A stretch of DNA of 64,000 bases, taken from Escherichia coli (GTDB lineage: Bacteria > Pseudomonadota > Gammaproteobacteria > Enterobacterales > Enterobacteriaceae). Made by a program: the position numbers and the translations under genes. The notes beneath the pieces are model-generated. The model was not told the DNA's origin and ran no database searches. It saw only the letters and a program-made list of their open reading frames with translations. Location: the NCBI RefSeq assembly GCF_003334355.1, contig NZ_QOWP01000002.1; one strand, 5' to 3'. The stretch's first letter is position 1. Each line of letters starts with the position of its first letter. Shown piece by piece: positions 21,089-21,187 of the stretch.

Positions 21089-21187
21089 AGTTATTATCTC
21101 TTCATGTCATATTGGGCGACGGCTTTCTGCCCATCAGAAATAGCCGGGCTTGGATCTTGCGATACTGACCCGGCTTGTTATCAACAC

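Follow-up and report, generated by a model that had tools for sequence, protein, structure and literature searches.

Why do two paralogous nucleoside transporter genes of Escherichia coli, nupX and psuT, have almost the same short sequence ahead of their start codons? We addressed this question in a stretch of 64,000 nucleotides (nt) from the E. coli contig NZ_QOWP01000002.1 (the window), which carries the nupX-rihB / yeiL / psuT-psuG-psuK locus. An earlier reading of this DNA (the original prediction) had noted a hairpin shared by the two upstream regions and took it as a sign of selection, the target being either a leader structure or a site bound by a protein. One copy of the element, termed hp1 here, is found between rihB and nupX and the other between psuG and psuT; in each case the flanking genes run in the same direction and hp1 is on their transcribed strand. 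We conclude that hp1 is very probably a functional hairpin of the sense-strand RNA, and comparison of homologous leaders indicates that it is a base-paired structure, at the RNA level, under purifying selection in Enterobacteriaceae.

A hairpin ahead of both transporter genes

The two copies of hp1, and the 28-nt block of shared sequence that overlaps each of them, are located as follows.

21113-21133, minus strand: hp1, nupX copy, UGGGC / AGAAAGCCGUC / GCCCA; 5 base pairs (bp) with an 11-nt loop, 24 nt from the nupX ATG
24343-24365, minus strand: hp1, psuT copy, ACGGGC / AGAAAGCCGUC / GCCCGU; 6 bp with an 11-nt loop, the stem beginning 6 nt past the psuG stop
21114-21141, minus strand: 28-nt block, nupX copy, ATTTCTGATGGGCAGAAAGCCGTCGCCC; 27 of 28 positions in common with the psuT leader
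24345-24372, minus strand: 28-nt block, psuT copy; begins with the final A of the psuG stop codon TAA

On the transcribed strand the block reads ATTTCTGA(C/T)GGGCAGAAAGCCGTCGCCC, or AUUUCUGA(U/C)GGGCAGAAAGCCGUCGCCC(A/G) as RNA; on the plus strand, the 28-mer GGGCGACGGCTTTCTGCCCATCAGAAAT at 21114-21141 recurs with one mismatch at 24345-24372. The near-exact sharing reported by the original prediction is borne out, and these are the sole two places in the window, as no further copies were found in the 64 kb when up to three mismatches were allowed (0 in 100 shuffles). The block lies 24 nt 5′ of the nupX ATG and its twin 65 nt 5′ of the psuT ATG. It is present in 5425 of 5426 complete E. coli genomes, with 2 places in the median genome and 3 at most. 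Thus, the block is locus-specific and not a dispersed repeat of the REP/BIME kind, for which hundreds of copies would be expected. Under neutral drift since the duplication, identity at 27 of 28 positions has P ~3e-8, a value that presumes no gene conversion and would not apply if conversion had occurred.

The stem that had been described, TGGGC/GCCCA around an 11-nt loop, is seen at 21113-21133, and its counterpart at 24343-24365 reads (A)CGGGC/GCCCG(T), such that the general fold is (Y)GGGC / 11-nt loop / GCCC(R). The minimum free energy (MFE) is -8.3 kcal/mol (z = -2.1) for the nupX copy and -11.1 kcal/mol (z = -2.4) for the psuT copy. The hairpin leaves the ribosome-binding site unoccluded and is followed by AAUAUGA or GUACUCA. 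One stem position is C-G in psuT and U-A in nupX, so that pairing is kept. This change is real in the sequence; taken alone it is weak evidence, because its 3′ partner is the first base past the end of the sequence homology, and it is an alignment of 24 leaders that confirms the pairing.

Leaders for this alignment were gathered from a PsuT scan of species-representative genomes, from contigs with close homologues and from E. coli variants, giving 24 distinct leaders that cover both paralogues and ~nine genera. The hairpin has homologues in E. coli, E. albertii, Citrobacter (four leaders), Klebsiella michiganensis, K. spallanzanii, Kluyvera, Buttiauxella, Enterobacter hormaechei, Leclercia, Entomohabitans, Superficieibacter and several metagenomic contigs, and they precede genes of both types, nupX following rihB and psuT following psuG. 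All 24 leaders have a loop of 11 nt, and the two central G-C pairs are invariant. The remaining pairs vary: columns 12-34 hold A-U, G-C or G.U, columns 13-33 C-G, U-A or U.G, columns 14-32 G-C or A-U, and columns 17-29 C-G or U.G. Standard pairs make up 95.1% of stem cells, compared with 35-55% when the partner is slid by 1-3 columns, and double-sided changes are found in three of the six pairs (A-U/G-C, C-G/U-A and G-C/A-U). The covariation score was matched by 0/500 shuffles, and RNAalifold returned the same helix from three different alignments. These figures support the proposal that selection acts on a structure in the leader, with pairing conserved throughout a wider set of relatives.

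The pattern of changes also bears on whether the pairing takes place in RNA or in DNA. Eight stem cells contain G.U or U.G wobbles in the sense orientation and one contains C.A, and in the antisense strand or in duplex DNA the wobbles would be mismatched. Polymorphisms in the 5′ arm among E. coli strains (A->G and C->U) likewise give G.U and U.G wobbles. Moreover, the copies in a single genome can differ, with CGGGC/GCCCG and TGGGC/GCCCA in E. coli and CGGGC/GCCCG and CAGGC/GCCTG in E. hormaechei. Compensatory changes and sense-only wobbles therefore argue for an RNA hairpin in the mRNA and not for a DNA operator, and arms that differ yet remain self-complementary within one genome argue for base pairing rather than for one protein that reads two half-sites. 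The idea of a protein-binding site, if placed in the DNA, is not supported by these observations.

Two leaders depart from the pattern. In a psuT leader from a metagenome, one C.A mismatch is accompanied by two extra G-C pairs beneath it. In E. coli 13C1065T (NZ_CP019259.1, 2037111-2037537) the nupX hairpin has a C->A change from GCCCA to GCCAA that creates a stem-breaking G.A; in the annotation of this strain rihB is a pseudogene, and no psuT copy of the block was found. Overall, the pairing of hp1 is preserved on the transcribed strand through substitutions that are compensatory or yield wobbles, as is characteristic of conserved cis-acting mRNA stem-loops, and hp1 is best filed as a locus-specific member of that well-known class.

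hp1 was also compared with known RNA families and sought at other loci. A scan with the 4227 covariance models of Rfam, judged by the gathering threshold of each family, gave no match over 21113-21133 even at E <= 10, and in the psuT leader it gave only a sub-threshold match to isrJ (20.1 bits compared with a gathering threshold of 37, E 3.9). We built a covariance model from our alignment, which matches the nupX copy with 34.1 bits (E 2.4e-5) and the psuT copy with 39.6 bits (E 8.6e-7). Across the window and 81 loci around more distant NupC-family genes, 0.93 Mb in all, it matched known nupX and psuT leaders only. A metagenome pattern scan with GGGCAGNNNGCGGTCGCCC listed at least 80 matches, mostly in GC-rich environmental contigs, and among those listed none lies beside a nupX/psuT-type start; the scan is uninformative on other contexts. 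The literature that we searched contains no description of the hp1 element and no report of RNA-level control of psuKGT or rihB-nupX.

Several additional features near hp1 were considered and set aside. Stem A (UUUCUG/CAGAAA), which would form an H-type pseudoknot with the hp1 stem, and stem B (GACGG/CCGUC), which appears in the single-sequence MFE structure of the psuT leader, are not kept outside Escherichia. A hammerhead-like CUGAUG...GAAA...GUC arrangement is a coincidence that provides no room for stem II. The stem U of the nupX copy creates an AUG that opens a 10-codon upstream open reading frame, MGRKPSPNMT* (21104-21134, minus strand). As a leader peptide this frame is probably not conserved: it needs a U at the stem base, being absent from copies with C, and differs in frame and length among genera. 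A psuG read-through frame is not conserved either, given a 2-nt indel in Citrobacter.

Leader anatomy and history of the two copies

The segment 19800-26300, which encompasses the locus, matches E. coli chromosomes at 100% identity and K-12 at 97.5% identity over the same span. Its six genes are as follows.

19838-21088, minus strand: nupX coding sequence, NupC/CNT-family nucleoside transporter, ATG at 21088 (from the open reading frame list and the RefSeq annotation of matching E. coli genomes)
21188-22129, minus strand: rihB
22259-22957, plus strand: yeiL, the sole plus-strand gene among the six
23028-24278, minus strand: psuT coding sequence, nupX paralogue, ATG at 24278
24372-25310, minus strand: psuG, stop codon TAA at 24372-24374
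25298-26239, minus strand: psuK

The products of psuT and nupX are 89% identical in amino acid sequence, and the genes are 78.5% identical in nucleotide sequence and 47.6% identical at four-fold degenerate sites. In a protein tree the two form separate clades across genera; nupX and psuT are ancient paralogues. Despite these clean protein clades, the E. coli copies of the hairpin are more alike than are nupX orthologues. The E. coli nupX hairpin block agrees with the E. coli psuT block at 27/29 positions and with the orthologous nupX block of C. portucalensis at 22/29, and its loop and 5′ flank are psuT-like. In Enterobacter and in a Leclercia-like contig, the loops of the two copies in one genome are quite different. 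The near-identity of the two E. coli copies is therefore probably due to gene conversion in the Escherichia lineage, as local homogenisation best explains the near-exact sharing. Such near-identity alone does not show that every base is under selection.

hp1 is the first homologous element of the leader that the two paralogues have in common. All psuT-type leaders and the nupX leader of K. spallanzanii are full-length, and proceed from the upstream stop through hp1, a C/A-rich segment (AUCA.ACAUACC.AAA) and a second hairpin, hp2, to the ribosome-binding region (…AAGGGAAAAUCAUU AUG). The hp1 stem begins 6-11 nt past the psuG stop in all psuT-type leaders. Beyond hp1, the leaders in the window comprise the following parts, including a hairpin on the nupX side that we call hp0.

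24325-24342, minus strand: C/A-rich single-stranded spacer ACUCAUCAAACAUACCAA between hp1 and hp2; conserved in the alignment and deleted from the nupX leader of this strain
24303-24324, minus strand: hp2, AACCUGGCG CUGA CGCCGGGUU then UAC; terminator-like, with a short U run
24276-24302, minus strand: psuT ribosome-binding region and start (UACUGGCAUGAAGGGAAAAUCAUUAUG), homologous to 21086-21112 of nupX
21142-21176, minus strand: hp0, AAGCCGGG...CCCGGCU; follows the rihB stop and abuts the 5′ side of the 28-nt block; MFE -17.8 kcal/mol, z = -4.0

The original prediction held that the intergenic sequence around the shared element had diverged, which is only partly right: the ribosome-binding region is homologous as well, and the gap between the two arose because nupX has lost a segment that is still present in psuT. 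Most nupX leaders have lost the spacer and hp2 through deletions between short repeats, and hp1 was always kept. In this strain and in K-12, 12 nt (TAACGGGATCAG-like) are deleted between hp1 and the nupX ribosome-binding site. The 12-nt segment is kept in another E. coli lineage (21089-21112 compared with 8166-8201 of our locus L002) and in other genera, and its loss shortens the distance from hp1 to the ATG from 36 to 24 nt.

Of the other hairpins, hp2 has an MFE of -15.9 kcal/mol (z = -4.7) and a consensus structure with U.G/C-G and other consistent changes. It is formed by a GC-rich stem of 7-10 bp, with an A run on its 5′ side and a run of 3-4 U on its 3′ side, and a terminator scan with a rule of 5 T in 8 did not call it, the U tract being too short. 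The consensus fold of the leader shows hp1 and hp2 only. hp0 has no homology to the psuT leader, and non-homologous hairpins are found at the same place in other genera.

The psuT leader (95 nt) is 84% identical between E. coli and Citrobacter, compared with 48% for four-fold sites, and 92% identical between E. coli and E. albertii, compared with only 58% for the four-fold sites of psuT. By this measure, conservation over the full psuT leader greatly exceeds that of neutral (synonymous) sites. Allelic divergence within E. coli is also deep over 19800-26300, where identity to the GTDB representative E. coli is 92.1% and where 979 of 5432 records have a best match of only 80-90% identity.

In some lineages the hairpin sequence has been altered or replaced. 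The loop of Enterobacter nupX has turned into pairs, which gives a stem of 12 bp, capped by a triloop, with -19.5 kcal/mol. An unrelated, near-perfect hairpin of ~14 bp, GCGCTGTTCCCGG...CCGGGAAACAGCGC, occupies the same place relative to the conserved spacer in Entomohabitans psuT (locus L088, ~1590-1640). Serratia plymuthica and ‘Klebsiella sp. BIGb0407’, whose orthologues are 73% identical, have a different long hairpin in the same spacer (loci L006 and L007, ~4860-4930). The leader that these last two have in common reads TTAAGTTTTATCC...AAAA, followed by the hairpin CCTGAAAGG...CCTTTCAGG, and is unrelated to hp1.

Other observations concern the surroundings of the two operons. yeiI (18694-19782, plus strand) encodes a sugar kinase of the PfkB type whose N-terminal domain is a winged helix (HTH_24). 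In most genera (eight of the collected loci) yeiI is conserved next to the last transporter gene and convergent to it; its product is a candidate regulator of the locus. REP-like sequences (GCCGGATAAG... / ...ATCCGGCA) lie 3′ of nupX (19779-19837) and of psuT (22950-23027), align between the paralogues and give weak sub-threshold naRNA4 matches. Elsewhere in the 64 kb, Rfam matches at the gathering level are a REP-type naRNA4 (3597-3674, minus strand), an L25 ribosomal-protein leader (49414-49439, plus strand) and a tRNA (53155-53228, plus strand).

Possible roles of hp1

What might the hairpin do? We tentatively favor a role in cis, wherein hp1 would mark a boundary in the structure of the mRNA or stabilize it, and thereby set the expression of the transporter within the operon. 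According to this proposal, hp1 would be a structural boundary element of the polycistronic mRNA at the junction between enzyme and transporter cistrons. A hairpin at this junction could define processed ends and hinder exonucleolytic decay across it, and in psuT-type leaders hp1 would act together with hp2, which might pass only part of the transcripts. The membrane transporter would consequently be made at a different, and probably lower, level than the upstream enzymes. This role in processing or as a decay barrier is favored because a hairpin is kept at the junction in three lineages despite alteration or replacement of the sequence, and because no conserved alternative pairing was found. 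It is also supported by the nupX lineages, in which the spacer and hp2 were repeatedly deleted and hp1 was retained each time. Further points in its favor are the position of the stem 6-11 nt past the psuG stop in all psuT-type leaders, the strength and covariation of hp2 and the high identity of the psuT leader between E. coli and Citrobacter.

Hairpins with such functions are known from other operons, and include the REP sequence between malE and malF of E. coli and the intercistronic hairpin of the Rhodobacter puf operon. Like these stabilizers, hp1 is GC-rich, lacks a U tract and lies between catabolic and transport cistrons, the distal gene encoding a membrane transporter, and a hairpin persists at nupX/psuT junctions even where its sequence has been replaced. 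Unlike them, hp1 has two copies per genome, its stem is shorter and weaker, and its loop is fixed in length and partly conserved. Moreover, in the duplication hp1 went with the downstream transporter unit and not with the upstream gene.

A number of findings weigh against the boundary proposal. With 5-6 bp and -8 to -11 kcal/mol, E. coli hp1 is only moderately stable, and such stability makes a weak barrier to 3′ exonucleases compared with REP-type stabilizers. The fixed 11-nt loop and the conservation of G26 and U27 (and of G19 and G23) within it are needless for a generic barrier, although part of this conservation can be read as an extension of the upper stem with G.U pairs, G19.U27 being replaced by A-U in two sequences. 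In nupX leaders, hp0 already follows rihB, and hp1 is therefore not needed to protect the rihB mRNA. rihB itself has been reported to be silent in K-12. Finally, the supplements of published 3′-end mapping and of RIL-seq under nitrogen starvation have no entries in either spacer, and the sole entry for the locus in them is a 3′ end antisense to nupX.

Ranking second, and a possible though less probable explanation, is a binding site for a trans-acting factor. Here hp1 would be the recognition hairpin for an RNA-binding protein or a small RNA that co-controls translation or stability of both transporter mRNAs, and the signal could be the availability of nucleosides or pseudouridine, or nitrogen starvation. 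Conservation of the loop is more readily understood on these terms: it has exactly 11 nt in every leader, its 3′ half is kept (GCNGUY, with G26 and U27 invariant) while the flanks are rich in indels, and it is identical, along with the 5′ flank, in the two E. coli copies. Strong constraint on the entire psuT leader, single-stranded spacer included, points the same way, as does the modest stem, whose size is typical of protein-binding hairpins. Known leader hairpins of this type include lambda boxB, which is bound by N, the PyrR binding loop, the RAT elements of BglG/LicT and the dual hexaloops of ANTAR proteins. hp1 resembles them in its stem of 5-6 bp, its fixed loop length, its several invariant loop bases and its position in an mRNA leader. 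It matches none of them in sequence or loop size, the cognate proteins are absent or unrelated to the locus, and the loop is dispensable in two lineages, being paired in Enterobacter nupX and exchanged with the whole hairpin in Entomohabitans psuT. Furthermore, the very different loops of the two copies within Enterobacter and Leclercia-like genomes make a single common reader of the loop unlikely.

Nor has a partner for hp1 emerged. Pairing of GcvB R1 with the spacers is predicted at -10 to -15 kcal/mol, which is the level of shuffled sequences (fraction at least as good 0.37-0.72), whereas a dppA-like control reaches -26.5 kcal/mol. No conserved complement of the loop was found; the sole recurrent one, GACCGC at +495 of the coding sequence, fails to covary with the loop in E. 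coli. Hfq RIL-seq likewise has no entries in the spacers in the supplements examined.

A bolder proposal, which we regard as improbable, is that hp1 and the psuT leader constitute an undescribed riboregulatory module. A dedicated trans-factor, either an RNA-binding protein (possibly one encoded in the locus, such as YeiI) or a small RNA, would bind the hairpin with its 11-nt loop to switch on uptake of pseudouridine or pyrimidine nucleosides, or else the psuG-psuT spacer would be released as a small RNA. SroC, from gltI-gltJ, exemplifies small RNAs derived from intercistronic or 3′ untranslated regions. The psuG-psuT spacer is comparable in that it contains a hairpin, a conserved single-stranded segment and a terminator-like hairpin. 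It differs in that its U tail is short and that the supplements examined have no RIL-seq or mapped 3′-end entry for it, and the nupX copy is without a terminator.

Attenuation is somewhat less plausible again. In such a mechanism hp1 would be the sensor or anti-antiterminator half of an attenuator with hp2 as terminator, such that, for example, a ribosome at the psuG stop decides on read-through into psuT. The layout of psuT-type leaders is suggestive: a hairpin near the psuG stop is followed by a spacer and then, just 5′ of the ribosome-binding site, by a GC-rich hairpin with A tract and U run, and the leader is highly conserved. hp2, with its A tract, stem of 7-10 bp, tetraloop and U run, is similar to intrinsic terminators, and the placing of hp1 ahead of it is that of a leader hairpin. 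An intrinsic terminator has a loop of 3-8 nt and a U-rich tract directly after its GC-rich stem, whereas hp1 has a loop of 11 nt, lacks the U tract and went uncalled in the terminator scan. An attenuator or expression platform would also require alternative structures. Truncated and constrained folds of leaders from five species gave no common alternative pairing and included hp2 in every case, and no conserved antiterminator, or conserved pairing of hp1 with either arm of hp2, the ribosome-binding site or distant sequence, was found. In addition, most nupX leaders lack hp2 yet keep hp1 with its covariation, and the run of 3-4 U in hp2 is short and uncalled by the terminator scan.

One further likeness to a transcription signal, the RfaH ops or JUMPstart element (GGCGGTAGnnTG), was rejected. 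The loop-to-3′-arm sequence AGCGGTCGCCCG of non-Escherichia copies matches 8/12 ops positions by eye. This likeness is broken by the E. coli copies, where GCCGTC loses G4; moreover, hp1 is intercistronic in a short catabolic operon and not in the leader of a long envelope operon, and covariation in pairing is no property of ops.

It is quite unlikely that hp1 is a functionless relic of the duplicated leader, conserved in E. coli on account of a recent short conversion tract. The greater similarity of the E. coli paralogous copies to each other (27/29) than to the C. portucalensis orthologue (22/29) is consistent with this explanation. Nonetheless, conversion leaves unexplained the retention of hp1, its fixed loop and its compensatory changes over ~nine genera and both paralogues. 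The hairpin has also survived several independent leader deletions, and leader identity is far above that of four-fold sites.

We consider it very unlikely that a dimeric transcription factor of the locus, such as YeiL or the helix-turn-helix kinase YeiI, uses the inverted repeat as its operator in the DNA. The repeat does have a fixed spacing of 11, and yeiL and yeiI are conserved neighbours. Genomic SELEX identified an RpoS-holoenzyme site inside psuG, between psuT and psuK (PMC5493296), which hints at an internal promoter 5′ of the psuT leader; we place this site at ~24400-24700, an approximate position, as K-12 coordinates were converted by an estimated offset between genome versions. However, the arms change in a complementary manner and differ between the two sites of one genome, and wobbles fit only the sense RNA, by 8 to 1. 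The sites also lie between cistrons with no promoter-like match adjoining either copy, and the promoter regions of yeiL-rihB and psuK contain no copy.

Least likely of all is the small ligand-sensing riboswitch at which the original prediction hinted, perhaps a nucleoside-sensing H-type pseudoknot: hp1 does stand 5′ of nucleoside transporter genes, and in E. coli an upstream UUUCU could pair with AGAAA of the loop, but the element is a single helix, the candidate second helix (UUUCU/AGAAA) is confined to Escherichia, the loop bases of Enterobacter nupX are taken up in pairs, Rfam provides no match at E <= 10 and folding revealed no switching alternative.

The psuKGT and rihB-nupX operons serve the catabolism and uptake of pseudouridine and pyrimidine nucleosides, and the leader element offers a concrete, mutable handle on how these poorly expressed operons set the levels of their transporters. 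If hp1 turns out to be no more than a decay or processing boundary, it would be an ordinary member of a well-known class. It also provides a small, clean example of a paralogous non-coding leader that has been kept since before the genera arose, and whose copies in Escherichia have apparently been homogenised locally.

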